A stretch of 64,000 bases of DNA from Trichormus sp. ATA11-4-KO1 (GCA_019358915.1 JAHHIM010000001.1:64001-128000); one strand, 5' to 3'. Numbered from the stretch's first letter, positions 13,051 through 64,000 are shown. Notes: generated by a model from the letters alone, not told the origin. Program-made: numbers and translations.

Positions 13051-13284
13051 ATGACAGTTACTAATATCGTGCAAAGCGTTTGGGCACTTTCTGCCATAGG
13101 TTTAATTATTTTGGTACTCCTACATAGCCCCAAAGGCGATGGTATTGGAGCCATTGGCGGACAAGCCCAGTTATTTAGCAGCACCAAGAGTGCAGAAGAC
13201 ACCTTAAACCGAGTTACCTGGGCGCTGACAGTTATTTTTATGGGTTTAACAGTGGTTTTGAGTGCCGGCTGGCTACCCAAATAA
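13051..13284 (+). CDS. secG: preprotein translocase subunit SecG
   Basis: LVLLHSPKGDGIG..GG..QLFSS.KSAE.TLNR.TW; follows gpmI. Confidence 0.95.
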   Translation: MTVTNIVQSVWALSAIGLIILVLLHSPKGDGIGAIGGQAQLFSSTKSAEDTLNRVTWALTVIFMGLTVVLSAGWLPK

Positions 13285-28102: not shown

Positions 28103-31100
28103 TTATTCTACTGCTCCCAAGATGTGTAAAGTTGCTTTCTGGGTCGCGGTTAAACCTGTAACACCTTTAATGTTCATCCCTTCATAGGGACGGGGCGATC
28201 GCAATGTCTGTAAACACTTGCCTGTGGCTATGTCCCAAAGCCGAATCGTTTCATCTTGACTTCCACTGGCGAGGATCTGTCCGTGAGGGTGGAAGGTAAC
28301 TGCCCAAATCCAATTCGTGTGCCCCACGATGGTGTTCAAACATTCTCCTGTATGGCTATCCCAAAGCTTAATGGTTTGATCATGACTCACGCTAGCCAGC
28401 TGATTGCCTTGGGGACTAAACTTAACATCGGTCACAGTTTTGGTATGTCCGTGCAAATTTTGTTGGCATTTCCCTGTTTTGACATCCCATAAGTTCACTG
28501 TGTTTTCTATACCTCCCCCGACCAGTTTTTGCCCATCTGGACTGAAGGCGATGGCACCAAACCAACTCTGATGTCCTGGTACTACTTTGAGAGGTTGACC
28601 TGTCTGGACATCCCATAAATAAATGCTATTATCGCTGCTACTAGCTAACAATTGCCCATCTGGACTCCAGGCAACTGAGAACACCCAATTTGAATTCCCT
28701 TCTAAAGTCTTGAGGCATTGACCAGTTTTGACATTCCACAGTTTTATTGTCTTGTCTGCACTCCCACTAGCAAGAGTTTGACCATCTGGGCTACAGGTTA
28801 GTGAAAATACAAAACTTGTATGTCCTGGTAAAGTTCTTAAACATTGCCCTGTATTTACATCCCAAATGCGAATAGTCTGATCGCAGCTGCCACTAAAAAG
28901 AGTTTGACCATCCGTACTAAAGACCAATGCCATCACTTCCCGAGTATGCCCATGCAAATGTTTTCGACACTTGCCAGTGGCGATATCCCAAATTCTAATG
29001 ATGTTGCCAGTATTACTAGCTAAAAGCTGACCATTAGAACTAAAAGCCACAGAGTAAACAAAAGTTGGATACCCCTGCAATGTTTTGATGCATTGTCCTG
29101 TGGAAATTTGCCATAATTTTACACTTTGGTCTTCGGCGGCACTTGCCAAAATTTGGCTATCAGGACTAAAGTCAACTGACCAGACACGACCAGAGTGACC
29201 AAATAAGGTTTGGATGCACTGTCCTGTATTAATATCCCACAAGCTAATTGAAGGCAATTCGCTGGCGATCGCTAGGTTGTGACCATTAGGACTAAAGGCA
29301 ACTGACCACACAAATTCAATTTGCTTGCCTTGTAAGGTTCGCCAGCATTTACCTGTAGCTACATCCCACAGTTTCACCGTTTTGTCTTGACTCCCACTAG
29401 CTAAGGTTTTGCCATCAGGACTGAAGGTAACTGACCAAACTCCTTGAGTATGTTCTGACAAAGTGTACAGACATTCACCCGTGCTAATATCCCAGAGTTT
29501 TACGGTGTTGTCGTCACTCCCAGTTGCTAGAATTGCCCCATCTGGGCTAAAGGCAACTGGACGAACAATATTTGTGTGTCCTCGCAATGTTTTCAGACAT
29601 TGACCGCTATTGACATCCCAGAGCTTGACTGTGTGGTCGGCTCTATTACTAGCCAGCAAGGTGCCATCTGGGCTAAAGTTAACTGACCAACCACGCACGG
29701 CATCTTCTTGTAAGGTGTGCAGGCAATCACCTGTGCTGACATCCCACACCTTGACAGTGCCATCGTCACAGCAACTTGCCAGAGTTTTGCCATCTTTAGT
29801 AAAGGTCACTGCCCAAACCCAGCCGAGATGTCCTTCAAAGCTTTGCAGTTGTTGCAAATTGTCCACATTCCACAGACGGACTCCACCATTGGCATCACTG
29901 GTAGCGAGGAATTTGCCATCGGGACTGAATTCTACCCACAAGATGTTCACCAGAGCTTCACTAAACGTTGATTTATTGAACTCGGCGTTGGTAAAATTTA
30001 CCTGCGGTAAGTTAGCGCCTTGAAGGTCAGCTTGCCAAATCGTTAAATTAGAAAAATCGTAGCCTGTAAAATCTACTTGCAGTTGACGCAGTAAGTTGAT
30101 TGTATTACCACTGGCGTATCCGGGGATTGTTGCAGATTTTTCCCGCAGTTTTACAATAACGTTATCAAGTTTTTGTTTAATTGCTGCTTGGGTTCTCAAG
30201 CTAATTTTTAACCTGCTCAAGATCGGTTGTACTATTACCCGGATCTGACTTTCTCGGACATAATCTTTGGCAGTAGCACATATCAGGGCGTAGGAATTGA
30301 ATAATTGGATGTTTCCCGTTGTCAGTTCCTCACAAACTTGATCAATAAGTTTCTTGATCATGTATTCCATGACCACAGTTTGTTGGGTATAGCTACCTGA
30401 GAGCCTTTCAATTAGCGATCGCCCCCGTAAAGACAACAGTGCTTCTAGCAGTTCCCGCTCGGAAATTTTTGGTATAATATCCTCTTGTAATTCCAGCAGT
30501 GTCACCCATTCCCGCTTCAGCGCTAGCCAGTACATTACTTGTTTTTCATGAGATGACAAGCGATGAAACTGTTGCTCTAACAGTTCCCAAATGTCGCCAA
30601 TGACAACTTGACCCTGTTGTGTAAATTCAGTAATATTCCCATCAAATAAAGTTTGAATTGTGGTTGCGGCAATTTTTAACGCCAGAGGATTGCCGGAATA
30701 ATAATGAATCAGCTGATTACATTCATCGGCGGAATTGACTAATCCCTTATCTGTAAAAATTTTTTGTGCTTCTGCTGGTTCCAAACCAGTTAGTTGTAGC
30801 GATCGCACCGGTAAGGTTTTACCTTCTCTGGCTGTGAAGCCACTTGGTTTTTCCCGACTTGTCAATACCAAACAACTTTGATGGGATTCATCTGCGACTC
30901 GTCTGCAAAGTTGACCATATTCTTCATATCCAGAACGATAGCGCCCAGCTTGTTCTCCACTCTGTAAAATTGACTCGACATTATCCAGGACAATCAGACA
31001 ACGTTGCCGACGTAGATACTTGATTAAGCAACAGATTTTCGCTTCTGTAGTTTCTGGTAAATTAACTTCTTGCTGCTGCGAAACAAATAAAATTATTTCT

Positions 31101-32927: not shown

Positions 32928-34067
32928 CTACAAACTAGGATTTCTATGATTTATAAGTCCCAGTTTATCTAATGCTTGCATAATAGCGGCAATGCGAGTT
33001 TGAACACCGAGTTTTTCGTAGATATGCTCAAAGTGTTTTTCCACTGTTTTATCACTACAGTCGAGCAGAGAAGCGATCTCCTTTGTGCTTTTGTCTTTAG
33101 CACCCCAAAATAAGATTTCTGCTTCACGTCTTGTTAATCCCAGCATTTCCAATGATTGGAGAGAAAACGAACTAAGTGGCTGTTCTTCCAGCATGAGTAA
33201 GTATTGTTCTTGTGGGCGATCGCAAATTAAGCGGACAATTAAGCACTTATGTTCTTGTTCAATTCGCAGGGGTGGATAAAATGGAGTCACATGATCATTG
33301 TCAGACTGAGAGATTTGATAATTTACCCAATGTTGTAAAAGTTCTGGTAAATTAAAGCCTTGTGTCCGAGAATATGAGAAATATTGCGTCAGCATCTCCC
33401 AGGCTTTTTGTGTCATAACTTGAACATTTCCACTGGCTGACATTGTAATCATGCCCAATTGCTCCATCGTTTGGTGTAATCGGGTTAACTCTTGCTGCAT
33501 TTGGCTGAAGACCTTGGCATTTTCATAAGCTTGAATTAGATGAGGACGTAGTAAGTTCAGCACCAGGCGATCGCGTTCAGAAAAATTCCGTTGTGGTCGA
33601 TGCAGCGCAATTACAATATCTGTAAATGAATTATGTAATGAAAAACTGGCAGAGGCTATTGGTAGTACCATAATCATTTGCTCTTCTGCATCGATCAATC
33701 GCAAAAACCCATGATATAAGCCCTCTAAGCGGTGAAGTTCTTGCTCACACAAAAAATCTGATATCTTATAAGCCCCGCCATCATTGGTTACCACATAGTG
33801 TCTAGCTAGTGGATGTTCATAGAAATGATCATGGGCAGTTCTCTCAACATCTTCCAGCATAGGAGAGTCAAAGTTTTTTGATGTGATAAAAGGTGATATC
33901 CGGTTTTTGGGAAAGTTTACTGGTGACCAAGCTACCACATCTGAAGCAACTACCTGCGGCAAAGTTGAGATTACCCTTGTTGCCAGTATTTCTAAGTTGC
34001 AGAGTGTATGCAATTCCTGAAGAAAGTGCTGTATTTGTCGAACATCCCTTTGCCTCAAAGTAGTCAT
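32928..34067 (-). CDS. LuxR-family HTH regulator with N-terminal GAF/PAS-like sensor
   Basis: C-terminal GLTRREAEILFW...STKEIA.LL.CS.KTVEKHFEHIYEKLGV.TR; FSERDRLVLNLLRPHL GAF end; no receiver domain. Confidence 0.92.
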   Translation of the reverse strand: MTTLRQRDVRQIQHFLQELHTLCNLEILATRVISTLPQVVASDVVAWSPVNFPKNRISPFITSKNFDSPMLEDVERTAHDHFYEHPLARHYVVTNDGGAYKISDFLCEQELHRLEGLYHGFLRLIDAEEQMIMVLPIASASFSLHNSFTDIVIALHRPQRNFSERDRLVLNLLRPHLIQAYENAKVFSQMQQELTRLHQTMEQLGMITMSASGNVQVMTQKAWEMLTQYFSYSRTQGFNLPELLQHWVNYQISQSDNDHVTPFYPPLRIEQEHKCLIVRLICDRPQEQYLLMLEEQPLSSFSLQSLEMLGLTRREAEILFWGAKDKSTKEIASLLDCSDKTVEKHFEHIYEKLGVQTRIAAIMQALDKLGLINHRNPSL

Positions 34068-61688: not shown

Positions 61689-63860
61689 GAAGAATACCAA
61701 ATTACACTCAAGCCTGTTTATTCACAAACCGTCCCCACACCTGACGGAGTGAAATTACCTAAAGATTGGTCACTTTCATGGCATCAATTAGCTACTTTAG
61801 AAGCTTTGCGCGATCCAAACATTGATGTAGTATTCAACACAGCCATGACAGGCGATGGTAAAAGCTTGGCTGCATATTTAGAAGTTCTCCAAGGTATATT
61901 TTCCGCTATTGGACTTTACCCAACTAATGAACTCGCTCGTGACCAAGAAACACAAATTAGAGGATATATTCAGCAATTTCAGCCGGAAGATGAGCCGCGT
62001 GTAGTTAGATTAAGTGGGGCTGATTTAGAAATTTATGCCGAAAATGAGGGGTTAAAAAAAGGGGCAGCAATTTCTACTCTCACTAGCCAAAGAGAGGCAT
62101 TATTAACTAACCCTGATATTTTTCACTATTTGCATCGAGGGGCTTATATAATTCGTGGCGATAGCCCAGACAAGTTATGGGGAAGAATCGATAAAGATTT
62201 TGACTTATTTATTTTTGATGAATTTCACGTTTTTGCTGCTCCCCAAATTGCCAGTGTAATTAACACAATGTTATTAATTCGTTGTACAAATCGCCGCAAA
62301 AAATTTCTGTTTCTCTCAGCCACACCAGATACAAATTTAATTAGCAGGTTCCAACAGGTAGGATTTCGTTGTCAAGTCATCAATCCCATTGCCCAAAATA
62401 AATATCAATTTCCTGAGACACCAGAACAAGGACAGCAACTGCAAACACAGGGCTGGCGAAAGGTAGCGCGAACAATTTCACTGAATTTTATTCCTCTAGA
62501 ACCTACTTTTAAAGCTTCGGAAACTTGGCTAAAAGAAAATAGTGATTTAATTTTGGCTCAATTTCAACAGTATCCAGGTAGTAAAGGAGCAATTATTCTC
62601 AATTCAATTGCCGCAGTCAAGCGTTTAAAGGTATTTTTTCAAGAAATTCTCCAGCCTTATGAATTAACAGTAGGAGAAAATACAGGGCTTTCTGGAAAAG
62701 GCATAAAAGAGCGAAGCCTTACGGCTGATTTAGTTATCGGCACTAGCACAATTGATGTGGGTGTTGATTTTAAAATCAATTTTCTAATTTTTGAGTCATC
62801 GGATGCAGGTAACTTTATTCAGCGTTTAGGGCGCTTAGGTAGACATGACGGCTATGAGAAAAATGGTCAAATAATTAAGTTTGAAAACTTTACAGCTTTT
62901 GCCCTTGTGCCTAACTTTTTAGTAGAACGTTTATTTCAGGTAGATGCACCACCATTAGAGGTAAATAGTATTTATGAGCGACCATCTTTTCACAATACAA
63001 TTAGCGAGAACTATCGACAAATTAATGATTTTCGCGGTTATTATCGCCGTTGGGGTGCTGTACAATCATTTTGGCTGTATTACAAATTGAGCGATCGCAC
63101 AATTAAACAACAGTATGCTCAAAGCCGAGAACAGTTTCAAAAAGCCTGTGAACAAGTATTTGAAAGCAAGCTGAATTCCATAGCCGGACGTGTTTCAGGA
63201 TGGGCGAAAGACTGGAAAGTACTATCAGGTAAATCAGGAAATCCCATCGCTGACGATGCGTCTAGTTTTCGCGGTTCTAGTCCTTTGCAATGCGGTTTAT
63301 ACGATTTAACCGAAGAGAACGAAGCCGACAGGTTTAAAACCTACGATTTACCAGGTATTTTGGGGAATTTAGAAATTGAAATGTGGACAGAGGCAGGATT
63401 TATACGGACACTTAAAGAAACCGCACAACGCACAGAACAACCCATAGCCAAAGGTAGATTTGCTCATTGTCTAGCATTTATGAAGTTGCGTTCCTACCGT
63501 GAGGAACGGCTGAACTGGAAGTTTACCTATGCTGGCGACTTACAGCTAATAGCTGATGCTTGGAAAGTTCAGGTTTTGACTGGTTTGGAAATTTGGCAAC
63601 CTGACAATCAATGGATTGGTGCAATTAACAAACGACTGAAGAAGGAAGGTTTGGTTTGTTACGTAATTCGCCGTCCTGTGTCTGAGGTGCGGATGCGGTT
63701 ACGGCTACCGATGCACTTTCAGATTTACCCCATTAGTGATCAGTATAGCTTTCATGATGTTAGTGCAAGCTGTGCGATCGCTTTTGGTCACTCTGCACTG
63801 CTGCTAGATACCCTCGCTTATACGTTTAAAAGCACAGGAGATGAGATATGGGTTGTTTAG
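61683..63860 (+). CDS. cas3: type I-D CRISPR-associated helicase Cas3'
   Basis: AMTGDGKS, YPTNEL, DEFH, LSAT, GTSTIDVGVDF, QRLGRLGRH; no N-terminal HD domain, consistent with I-D. Confidence 0.93.
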   Translation: MSEEYQITLKPVYSQTVPTPDGVKLPKDWSLSWHQLATLEALRDPNIDVVFNTAMTGDGKSLAAYLEVLQGIFSAIGLYPTNELARDQETQIRGYIQQFQPEDEPRVVRLSGADLEIYAENEGLKKGAAISTLTSQREALLTNPDIFHYLHRGAYIIRGDSPDKLWGRIDKDFDLFIFDEFHVFAAPQIASVINTMLLIRCTNRRKKFLFLSATPDTNLISRFQQVGFRCQVINPIAQNKYQFPETPEQGQQLQTQGWRKVARTISLNFIPLEPTFKASETWLKENSDLILAQFQQYPGSKGAIILNSIAAVKRLKVFFQEILQPYELTVGENTGLSGKGIKERSLTADLVIGTSTIDVGVDFKINFLIFESSDAGNFIQRLGRLGRHDGYEKNGQIIKFENFTAFALVPNFLVERLFQVDAPPLEVNSIYERPSFHNTISENYRQINDFRGYYRRWGAVQSFWLYYKLSDRTIKQQYAQSREQFQKACEQVFESKLNSIAGRVSGWAKDWKVLSGKSGNPIADDASSFRGSSPLQCGLYDLTEENEADRFKTYDLPGILGNLEIEMWTEAGFIRTLKETAQRTEQPIAKGRFAHCLAFMKLRSYREERLNWKFTYAGDLQLIADAWKVQVLTGLEIWQPDNQWIGAINKRLKKEGLVCYVIRRPVSEVRMRLRLPMHFQIYPISDQYSFHDVSASCAIAFGHSALLLDTLAYTFKSTGDEIWVV

Positions 63861-63861
63861 C

Positions 63862-63962
63862 GTTTCAATCCCTGATAGGGATTAATTTTGAGAAAAAGCT
63901 TACGGTTCTAAGCACAGACTTATTCGTTTCAATCCCTGATAGGGATTCATGAAGTTGTTATG
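63862..63962 (+). CRISPR. two-repeat CRISPR-like mini-array with divergent repeat 3' ends and a short spacer
   Basis: GTTTCAATCCCTGATAGGGATT at 63862 and 63926 (period 64 nt) with internal hairpin AATCCCT-GAT-AGGGATT, as in Nostocales I-D repeats. Confidence 0.8.
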
Positions 63963-64000
63963 TGCCTGTAAAGCTCTCTCACATAAGAGTATTCCATAAT

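Follow-up and report, generated by a model that had tools for sequence, protein, structure and literature searches.

Directly behind cas3′ of a type I-D CRISPR–Cas locus, two partly degenerate repeat-like units enclose a single spacer, and we conclude that they very probably constitute a mini-CRISPR encoding a crRNA-like regulatory RNA of the kind known as crlRNA or CreR. Self-regulating mini-arrays have been established experimentally for types I-B, I-E, I-F and V-A, whereas for type I-D they have been predicted only. Shmakov et al. (2023; bioRxiv 10.1101/2023.03.03.530964, PMC10120712) predicted mini-arrays for I-D loci, where they lie between cas3 and cas10d, run in the direction opposite to cas3 and have partial targets, each with a flanking PAM, upstream of cas10d or of cargo genes, namely toxin–antitoxin pairs and regulators. 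On the strength of its sequence, the mini-array described here belongs to that kind: it occupies a I-D locus directly behind cas3 and before cas10d, has two units read in the opposite direction, and shows a partial, seed-side intergenic match with the cognate PAM, together with toxin–antitoxin and regulator cargo in a variable hotspot. The I-D cases of that study are computational, and ours is likewise known from sequence alone; our literature search found no experimental work on a I-D regulatory mini-array. The locus and its roughly 70 relatives provide a covariation-backed I-D example in filamentous cyanobacteria, for which promoter, PAM, seed and putative regulated genes can be defined.

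The window, that is, the whole stretch of 64,000 nt that was analysed, corresponds to G000:C1:64001–128000 of a 5.97-Mb genome. The mini-array starts one base after the cas3′ stop codon (TAG, 63858–63860), and the 23-nt sequence CGTTTCAATCCCTGATAGGGATT is found at 63861–63883 and again at 63925–63947; as a repeat family (D1), the pair comprises two copies of 26 nt with 96% identity and a spacing of 64 nt. A 22-nt core of the units is also the core of the CRISPR repeat of this genome, with 58 matches genome-wide at no more than two mismatches versus none for the reversed control pattern, so the resemblance of the two units to a CRISPR repeat is not due to chance. Almost all of these copies belong to regular arrays on contigs C1, C11, C18, C60 and C73. 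The next ones behind the mini-array form the locus's own four-unit array, about 9 kb further on (G000:C1:136915–137151), and no third unit was found in the sequence inspected past the window end. The element is thus a pair of repeat-like units around one spacer, within the cas locus and separate from the regular array behind cas2. A guide-like sequence also occurs in the 3′ end of cas3′ (repeat family D4).

Both units match the Rfam family CRISPR-DR5 (RF01318) on the minus strand; degeneracy of their 5′ halves keeps the scores (Table 1) below the gathering score of 40. On this strand the half that is kept consists of the hairpin and the 3′ ATTGAAAC: the promoter-side unit retains its hairpin and these last 8 nt, and the cas3′-side unit retains the hairpin AATCCCTATCAGGGATT followed by GAAAC. 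The locus's own array downstream of cas2 has a 37-nt repeat, GTTCCAATTACTAATAATCCCTATCAGGGATTGAAAC, on the plus strand, and its mutated repeat copies are those farthest from cas2. A plus-strand reading of the two units was dropped because the comparison with this main array and the Rfam matches both point to the minus strand. The mini-array, as judged from these comparisons, is read towards cas3′, and its leader side is the far side, straddling the window end. The 27-nt core of the guide is conserved across 11 aligned loci. In three of these relatives (L038, L041 and L043) the cas3′-side unit is 8–9 nt longer; the unit in G000 is therefore probably truncated, and the guide probably continues about 9 nt beyond the core to position 63890, for a length of some 36 nt in all.

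These results bear on several points of the initial annotation. Its two 23-nt copies, 64 nt apart and right after the cas3′ stop codon, are present as described, and extending the sequence to the right revealed no continuation of the array past position 64000 and a repeat that is the same as in the main I-D array of the locus. It was also right that the hairpin half of each unit is kept, but it had taken the other strand and so placed the degeneracy in the 3′ rather than the 5′ halves. The 27-nt spacer that it derived by assuming a full 37-nt unit next to cas3′ gives way to the probably longer guide and the probably truncated unit, and its remark that there is no room for a leader was wrong, since the minus strand is the one that is read and the units have a promoter-like site on their other side.

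This candidate promoter was found in L031, an 18-kb region around the site in which the window position equals the L031 position plus 59999. It consists of TTGACA-18-AATACT with a TG (10 of 12 matches; L031 4018→3989, minus strand), and because the scan total does not exceed that of shuffled sequences (3 found, 3.1 expected), it is a prediction that rests on conservation: the 11-locus alignment retains, in plus-strand letters, GTCAA and CA (the TG). A 131-nt primary transcript starting at the predicted transcription start site (about L031 3982) folds with both repeat hairpins (z-score −5.1). The promoter and terminator scan of the locus yielded no terminators, its counts not being above those of shuffles. 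The PAM-distal hairpin of the guide with its U-run, GCUUAGAACCGUAAGCUUUUU, was considered as an intrinsic terminator and set aside as not general, being absent from one class of guides (class C). Read on the plus strand, the cas3′-side hairpin has AATTTT behind it and might in addition serve to terminate transcription of cas3′.

We infer that transcription of the mini-array runs along the minus strand, away from cas10d into the cas3′ end, and that the resulting RNA is processed by Cas6, loaded into Cascade and used for repression of a neighbouring promoter. The Cas6 encoded in the locus would cut at the base of the two kept hairpins, and the product would comprise an 8-nt handle ATTGAAAC, the ~36-nt guide and a 3′ hairpin. 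I-D complexes hold an 8-nt 5′ handle through Cas5d (PMC9123187), and the last 8 nt of the promoter-side unit would be the corresponding handle of the mature guide. Once loaded into type I-D Cascade, the RNA would pair with about 17 PAM-proximal bases of a GTT-flanked divergent intergenic site.

Table 1. Features of the mini-array and its surroundings (window positions unless marked otherwise)
Feature	Position	Strand	Evidence or remark
Divergent regulator, 330 aa	60719..61711	-	Pfam WCX 3.6e-08
cas3′, type I-D helicase subunit, 747 aa	61617..63860	+	Pfam DEAD 2.1e-10, Cas3-like_C_2 3.5e-07
cas3′-side repeat-like unit (downstream in the predicted transcription direction)	63862..63898	-	Rfam CRISPR-DR5 34.8 bits
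Guide, conserved core GAATAAGTCTGTGCTTAGAACCGTAAG (27 nt)	63899..63925	-	11-locus alignment
Promoter-side repeat-like unit (upstream in the predicted transcription direction)	63926..63961	-	Rfam CRISPR-DR5 32.6 bits
Predicted -10 box AATACT, TG before	63988..63993	-	promoter scan and conservation
Predicted -35 TTGACA of the mini-array promoter	window-equivalent 64017->64012; L031 4018->4013	-	
Main DNA target including PAM	window-equivalent 64030-64059; G000:C1:128030-128059; L031 4031-4060		
ORF65, 65 aa	L031 4189-4386		in classes A and B, the first gene after the target
Second guide-like element of G000	L031 4456-4484		21 of 29 guide positions match

Such a site exists and is unique in the genome. 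We scanned both strands of the whole genome with guide positions 1–18, leaving positions 6, 12 and 18 unscored, and the sole non-self site with 14 of 15 matches is C1:128033 on the plus strand (L031 4034), 108 nt away from the guide and with GTT just before it. Sites with 13 matches number 12, and all of them lack a GT PAM. The PAM of I-D systems is 5′-GTN, and their seed comprises the first 8–10 nt except position 6 (PMC10212523); at the main target, guide positions 1–11 match perfectly and pairing stops at about position 17. On either side of the target a promoter is predicted, the two pointing away from each other; the target is located upstream of the conserved sequence TTGACA-N17-TAGCTT (L031 4070–4098), which precedes the small gene ORF65. 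In G000 its matched part ends 20 nt before the −35 hexamer, and in relatives with an 11-nt deletion at this place it lies nearer, so that occlusion of RNA polymerase is plausible rather than evident. A second GTT-flanked site (L031 4005–4034) overlaps the predicted −35 box of the mini-array promoter and matches at 12 of 15 positions, including positions 1–9 except 6; as there are 11 GT-flanked sites with 12 matches genome-wide, it is the weaker evidence, and it suggests that the RNA may also limit its own production.

To place these observations in the context of related loci, we combined a DNA search of 201 genomes of the family with a search of 401 genomes of the phylum for the Cas3′ C terminus (51 matched), which gave 94 loci; 60 of the 62 in the first set could be oriented, and all 32 of the second were oriented from the search output. 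A mini-array spacer lies behind cas3′ in 69 of them (49 in the first set and 20 in the second). Among 11 loci of the same guide class, from several genera, the guide core has a mean pairwise identity of 96.0%, compared with 78.4% for the cas3′ coding sequence. The hairpin and handle are 93.8% identical in the cas3′-side unit and 96.0% in the promoter-side unit, the degenerate parts 43.9% and 57.1%, respectively, and the degenerate halves and flanks taken together range from 43 to 67%.

This pattern of conservation bears on two other explanations of the element. An ordinary immune CRISPR array was rejected, as the units are half degenerate, the same guide recurs in 11 genomes of several genera and no mobile element matches it: 50,697 phage records gave only matches with E ≥ 1, and 72,556 plasmids gave none. 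The mini-array might instead be an inert relic, either what decay has left of a former array's trailer end or a scar of recombination in a cargo hotspot, whose units persist only because the hairpin by the cas3′ stop codon acts as a terminator. Degenerate halves in both units, the T-rich run after the cas3′-side hairpin on the plus strand, the variable gene content between the mini-array and cas10d and the guide-like sequence of family D4 would all fit such an origin. We nevertheless consider it highly improbable, because the guide is held at 96% identity while its flanks drift, its best match genome-wide lies close by with the right PAM, and compensatory guide–target changes run through 15 guide classes; nor does a terminator role explain why the promoter-side unit is as conserved as the cas3′-side one.

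Guide and target co-vary across the loci. When the best seed-side match was sought in the next 480 nt, with no PAM required, GT flanked it in 62 of the 69 loci (37 GTT and 25 GTC); the exceptions are L044, L050, L086, L098, L100, L103 and L105. Sorted by the first 5 nt of their guides, these 62 loci make up 15 classes; because the loci are related, their counts overstate independence, the unrelated guide classes being the real replicates. Across 61 distinct guide–target pairs, positions 1–3 are never mismatched, whereas position 6 is mismatched in 42 and position 12 in 46, about the random rate; as these two positions were not scored, their mismatches show them to be unconstrained. Pairing fades after about position 16 and is near random from position 17 on. 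A shuffle control covered the first 29 loci, and in 26 of them the observed score was attained by at most 3 of 200 shuffled guides. Where the guide has changed, the target shows the matching change: the guide variants GAATAAGTC, GAATAAGCC and GAATAACCC have the same changes in their targets (L113, L115), positions 7–9 read GTC, GCC and CCC in L097, L113 and L115 on both sides, class B differs from class A by G to A at guide positions 1 and 13 together with the target, and variants within class C (L075, L076 and L084) behave likewise. Seed mismatches at position 7, 8, 10 or 11 of the main site occur in several relatives (L037, L040 and L038).

The initial annotation had proposed a CreA- or CreR-like mini-array guiding Cascade to a promoter beyond the window, and this idea is supported by the unique best target behind GTT, by conservation and by at least 15 co-varying guide classes. 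Its partial seed match behind a GTN PAM was located genome-wide in a promoter region (GTT, 14 of 15), 30–60 nt past the window end, in agreement with its finding of no target inside the window. The spacer is conserved across genera at 96%, against 78% for the cas3′ coding sequence, and the phage or plasmid protospacer that it had named as counter-evidence was not found among the records searched.

The genes around the target are arranged in the order WCX regulator (WYL-type), cas3′, mini-array, ORF65, MNT, HepT, cas10d, csc2, csc1, a 2OG-Fe(II) oxygenase-like gene, cas6, cas2 and array. WYL regulators such as Sll7009 accompany I-D systems (PMC10212523). Downstream, Cas10d (TIGR03174, E = 0) and Csc1 (TIGR03159) are recognizable, and Csc2, Cas6 and Cas2 are also encoded. 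The genes of the MNT nucleotidyltransferase and the HepT RNase overlap, and HepT overlaps cas10d too. ORF65 and the small first genes of the other guide classes match no Pfam or NCBIfam family. The predicted fold of ORF65 is a winged helix of three helices and two strands (pLDDT 86), and its top Foldseek matches in the PDB are regulators of the ArsR/SmtB/MarR type (probability up to 0.99, TM about 0.6–0.7), with E-values that are weak (0.04–0.3) and a fold class that is consistent. The first gene behind the target varies with the guide class, and behind it follows a cargo that varies in turn: MNT–HepT, DUF433 with DUF5615/PIN-like pairs, a YhcG/DUF1016 nuclease, or cas10d directly. This variable content matches the ‘cargo hotspot’ that Shmakov et al. 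describe for I-D loci. A second promoter-like site was found by the promoter scan upstream of MNT (L031 4613–4640), so control of cas10d from the targeted promoter is tentative.

In the mechanism that we propose, the partial pairing would allow binding without degradation by Cas3′, and Cascade, sitting beside the conserved TTGACA-N17-TAGCTT promoter, would form a roadblock. The promoter so blocked precedes ORF65, then the variable cargo (MNT–HepT in G000) and then the cas10d–csc2–csc1–cas6–cas2 operon, which would be the controlled genes. Such an arrangement resembles CreR, which Liu et al. (2023; bioRxiv 10.1101/2023.03.10.532045) named and showed experimentally for types I-B, I-E and V-A. 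CreR, too, is a degenerate mini-CRISPR whose upstream unit keeps the 8 nt that become the 5′ handle and whose downstream unit keeps part of the 3′ handle, as the two units here are predicted to do. In both, the guide pairs partly with a PAM-flanked site, which for CreR adjoins the −35 box of the effector operon, and the expected consequence would be the same, an autorepression that senses crRNA load and anti-CRISPRs. Unlike CreR, the promoter targeted here first drives, as predicted, a small winged-helix gene and cargo, and cas10d only after them. CreR was supported by reporter assays, whereas the present mini-array, of subtype I-D, is deduced from genome comparison. The variable cargo behind the target suggests back-up defence genes wired to the state of the CRISPR effector.

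The cargo also brings to mind CreTA, the CRISPR-regulated toxin–antitoxin RNA pairs of types I-B and I-F (summarised, with phage mimics, in bioRxiv 10.1101/2024.10.29.618823), in which a crRNA-like RNA likewise directs Cascade to repress a neighbouring promoter in the cas locus. On a CreTA-type reading, the repressed promoter would drive a toxin, either the small first gene or HepT, the mini-array would be the antitoxin RNA CreA, and loss or inhibition of Cascade would release the toxin and kill or arrest the cell. Toxin–antitoxin genes are indeed near: in G000 a HepT-like RNase (2.8e-23) with its MNT partner stands between the target and cas10d, relatives have DUF433 and DUF5615/PIN-like pairs or YhcG/DUF1016 nucleases in the same place, and the small first gene varies together with the guide class. 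Shmakov et al. moreover report an enrichment of toxin–antitoxin genes behind I-D mini-arrays and propose CreTA-like circuits. We judge such a safeguard unlikely, however. The first gene of classes A and B is a minimal winged helix with nothing toxin-like about it; HepT is paired with the antitoxin MNT, so that joint de-repression need not be toxic; and 4 of the 11 class A loci (L037, L040, L042 and L049) have cas10d directly after ORF65, with no toxin–antitoxin genes between. CreT toxins are, moreover, small RNAs adjoining creA, none of which is evident here, and HepT has a protein antitoxin. Of the initial annotation's suggestion, targeting of a promoter beyond the window is supported and the antitoxin part is unlikely, the first gene predicted to be regulated being a winged helix and no recognizable toxin.

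Besides its DNA target, the guide of the regulatory mini-array has a second match. In 40 of the 69 loci, a guide-like element without a PAM lies on the regulated strand and matches guide positions from about 4 to 29. It was sought as the best full-length guide match in the next 1,200 nt, on both strands in the first set and on the minus strand only in the second. In the first set, 29 of 49 loci have an element that is at least 21/32 identical, on the minus strand; in the second, 11 of 20 have one that is at least 20/32 identical. Loci without the element reach 15–20/32, a tally that leaves out three class G loci, whose best full-length match (21–23/32) is the PAM-flanked DNA target. With the element on the minus strand, complementarity to the guide resides in the sense (plus) transcript of the regulated genes. 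Of the 29 first-set elements, 28 have a flank other than GTN where a PAM would be; the flanks are ACT in 14, ATT in 4, AAT in 4, AGT in 3 and others in 4. Guides match the elements of their own class but fail to match those of the rest: the diagonal sum of 550 compares with a permutation mean of 406 and maximum of 483, and none of 10,000 permutations reached 550, in a test that is generous because the class structure is phylogenetic.

The mismatches between guide and element recur at every sixth base. Among nine first-set representatives, picked by hand, one per guide variant, mismatches fill 27 of the 36 cells at positions 6, 12, 18 and 24, against 41 of 225 at the remaining positions from 1 to 29; the other five phases have 4–36% mismatch, and 22 of 100,000 random four-position sets reach 27. 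Eight loci of other families, examined after the idea arose, with L098 standing for four near-identical loci and nine element-less loci left out, have 29 of 32 mismatches at sixth positions versus 42 of 200 elsewhere (81 of 100,000 random sets). The mismatch rate is thus about random at sixth positions (75–91%) and about 20% elsewhere. The same pattern appears in the unrelated classes C, J and K, with mismatches at 2–4 of 4 sixth positions and at 3–6 of 25 others. In G000, all four sixth positions differ, and elsewhere only positions 2, 3, 8 and 19. Shared descent within the GAATA class accounts for many of these mismatches.

Classes A and B have, behind ORF65, a conserved stretch of about 137 nt (L031 4441–4577) in which the element makes up hairpin P2; in G000 the stretch stands between ORF65 and the cargo and cas10d genes. 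This putative structured RNA is closed by AGAGGGAAGC/GCTTCCCTCT and has a fold z-score of −3.7; compensatory changes occur in 4 of 37 predicted pairs, and many G–U pairs fit the plus strand only. Eleven loci went into a covariance model, which gives 161 bits on G000, with this single copy there, and 37–92 bits downstream of ORF65 homologues in six class B loci among 19 searched. A permissive Rfam search of L031 3600–4800 returned no family for it; only the two CRISPR-DR5 matches were meaningful, and the remaining rows (E 1.3 to 7.3) were taken as chance.

A bias at every sixth base is the prediction for pairing to a crRNA held on a Cas7 backbone, and it is also seen in the DNA targets. The missing PAM and the broken seed argue against binding of double-stranded DNA, and they would in addition prevent self-cleavage. 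According to Schwartz et al. (2022; Nat Commun, PMC9123187), the Synechocystis I-D Cascade binds complementary single-stranded RNA at about 11 nM with any flank, and the Cas7d–crRNA geometry is like that of type III complexes. Because I-D Cascade binds such RNA tightly without a PAM, we propose that the regulated transcript is a further docking site for Cascade, again by way of the guide. The guide may, accordingly to this tentative proposal, have two kinds of target, promoter DNA (GTY PAM, positions 1 to ~17) and the sense transcript (PAM-less, positions ~4–29), although on present sequence comparisons we put its likelihood somewhat short of even. Schwartz et al. worked with an artificial, fully matching RNA in vitro and named no natural RNA target, and RNA cleavage by I-D is not among the results of theirs that we drew on.

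The alternative that the element is a decayed duplicate of the mini-array or the source sequence of the guide, with no present interaction with Cascade, comes close to an even chance. Only the second site is affected by this reading. The sequence GTCTTAATCCCC, which comes after the element in class A, by eye resembles the repeat-unit start GTTTCAATCCCT and so suggests a duplicated unit, and the covariance model of the structured RNA weakly matches class B mini-arrays (17–21 bits); a local alignment of the mini-array with the region after ORF65 scores 35, which is not significant against shuffles (mean 24, maximum 40). Neutral decay, however, would spread mismatches evenly rather than concentrate them at sixth positions in both groups of loci, and element positions 9–11, 14–17 and 25–29 almost never differ. 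Guide changes within classes are mirrored in the element (L049, L097, L112 and L113), and among the 29 first-set elements every extended match without a PAM has the orientation in which the guide can pair with the sense transcript. Differences between guide and element comprise 18 wobble-compatible transitions, 7 other transitions and 51 transversions, a weak lean towards RNA pairing in loci that are not independent.

If docking on the transcript takes place, it could silence escaped transcripts, or the transcript could titrate the repressor, and the type III-like RNA binding seen in type I-D systems would thereby gain a first natural role. The PAM-less periodic site offers a natural substrate for asking why I-D Cascade kept this ability, and it is the part of our findings that may be new. 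Our literature search found no description of a second PAM-less transcript site or of a structured RNA around it, and in the searched main text of Shmakov et al. (2023) the terms mRNA, ssRNA, antisense and post-transcription have no occurrences.

The position of the element differs in other classes. Classes C, J and K have it a short way beyond the mini-array and the DNA target, about 100–180 nt past the unit on the promoter side. In class C, about 40 nt separate the element from the DNA target, which lies upstream; the small first gene follows downstream, and a conserved TGTGTTAAAGT-like motif directly precedes the element. If this motif is read as an extended −10 box, the element would form the 5′ end of the transcript.

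In the fold of the predicted primary transcript of the mini-array, the two repeat-like units and guide directly behind cas3′ in the type I-D locus, the PAM-distal guide half is base-paired to the 5′ leader GAGAGAGCUUUACAGGCACA. The resulting single long stem encloses the promoter-side hairpin together with the seed (z = −5.1), and, on this folding model, it could affect processing or stability of the mini-array RNA. A further structured RNA of roughly 137 nt, closed by a 10-bp stem, is conserved behind the 65-aa winged-helix gene, the first gene behind the GTT-PAM target, and its inner hairpin is complementary to the mini-array guide. This RNA occurs as a single copy in the source genome (G000), is also present in the loci of guide class B (6 of the 19 loci searched) and matches no Rfam family.

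Features of the mini-array, the structured RNA and related repeat or guide-like sequences (L031, 18-kb stretch around the site).
Feature	Position	Strand	Remark
Predicted mini-array primary transcript	window 63855-63985	-	5′ leader GAGAGAGCUUUACAGGCACA
Final cas3′ codons, guide-like	window 63821-63837		TACGTTTAAAAGCACAG
Conserved structured RNA, ~137 nt	L031 4441-4577 = G000:C1:128440-128576	+	beyond window end; between 65-aa winged-helix gene and next gene
Guide-like sequence at cas2-side array	L031 about 13160-13175		TACGTGTTTAAAAGCA
Two-unit repeat pair	G000:C14 about 28270-28380	+	outside window
Two-unit repeat pair	G000:C22 about 33690-33800	-	outside window

Comparison with related I-D loci (L035-L063) revealed that the stretch from the target to cas10d, downstream of the mini-array, is a cargo hotspot containing varying combinations of MNT-HepT, DUF433 with DUF5615/PIN-like genes and YhcG/DUF1016 PDDEXK nucleases. 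In these relatives, the guide class and the identity of the small first gene differ together. The guide class beginning AATTC (L050, L098, L100, L103 and L105) lacks a seed site flanked by GT in the next 480 nt, and the full-length, PAM-less element is the only site present; in four of these loci it lies at a distance of roughly 130 nt from the mini-array. If the PAM-less element is functional, these loci would depend on it alone.

The final codons of cas3′ resemble the plus-strand reading of the guide region (14 of 17 bases, repeat family D4), and a similar sequence adjoins the array on the cas2 side, next to its outermost unit; the two may be a trace of the origin of the mini-array. The I-D operon (L031 8964-12647, beyond the window) contains cas2 and lacks cas1 and cas4, and Cas1 matches are found on other contigs, C52 and C68, where they lie at the contig ends. 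A gene for a 203-aa 2OG-Fe(II) oxygenase-like protein is placed between csc1 and cas6.

The genome holds two other two-unit repeat pairs. The pair on contig C14 has complete 37-nt repeats separated by a spacer of 22 nt. Because the sequence behind it is similar to the leader of the array next to cas2, it looks like an array with a single spacer. The pair on contig C22 consists of a good unit and, 86 nt from it, a degenerate one.
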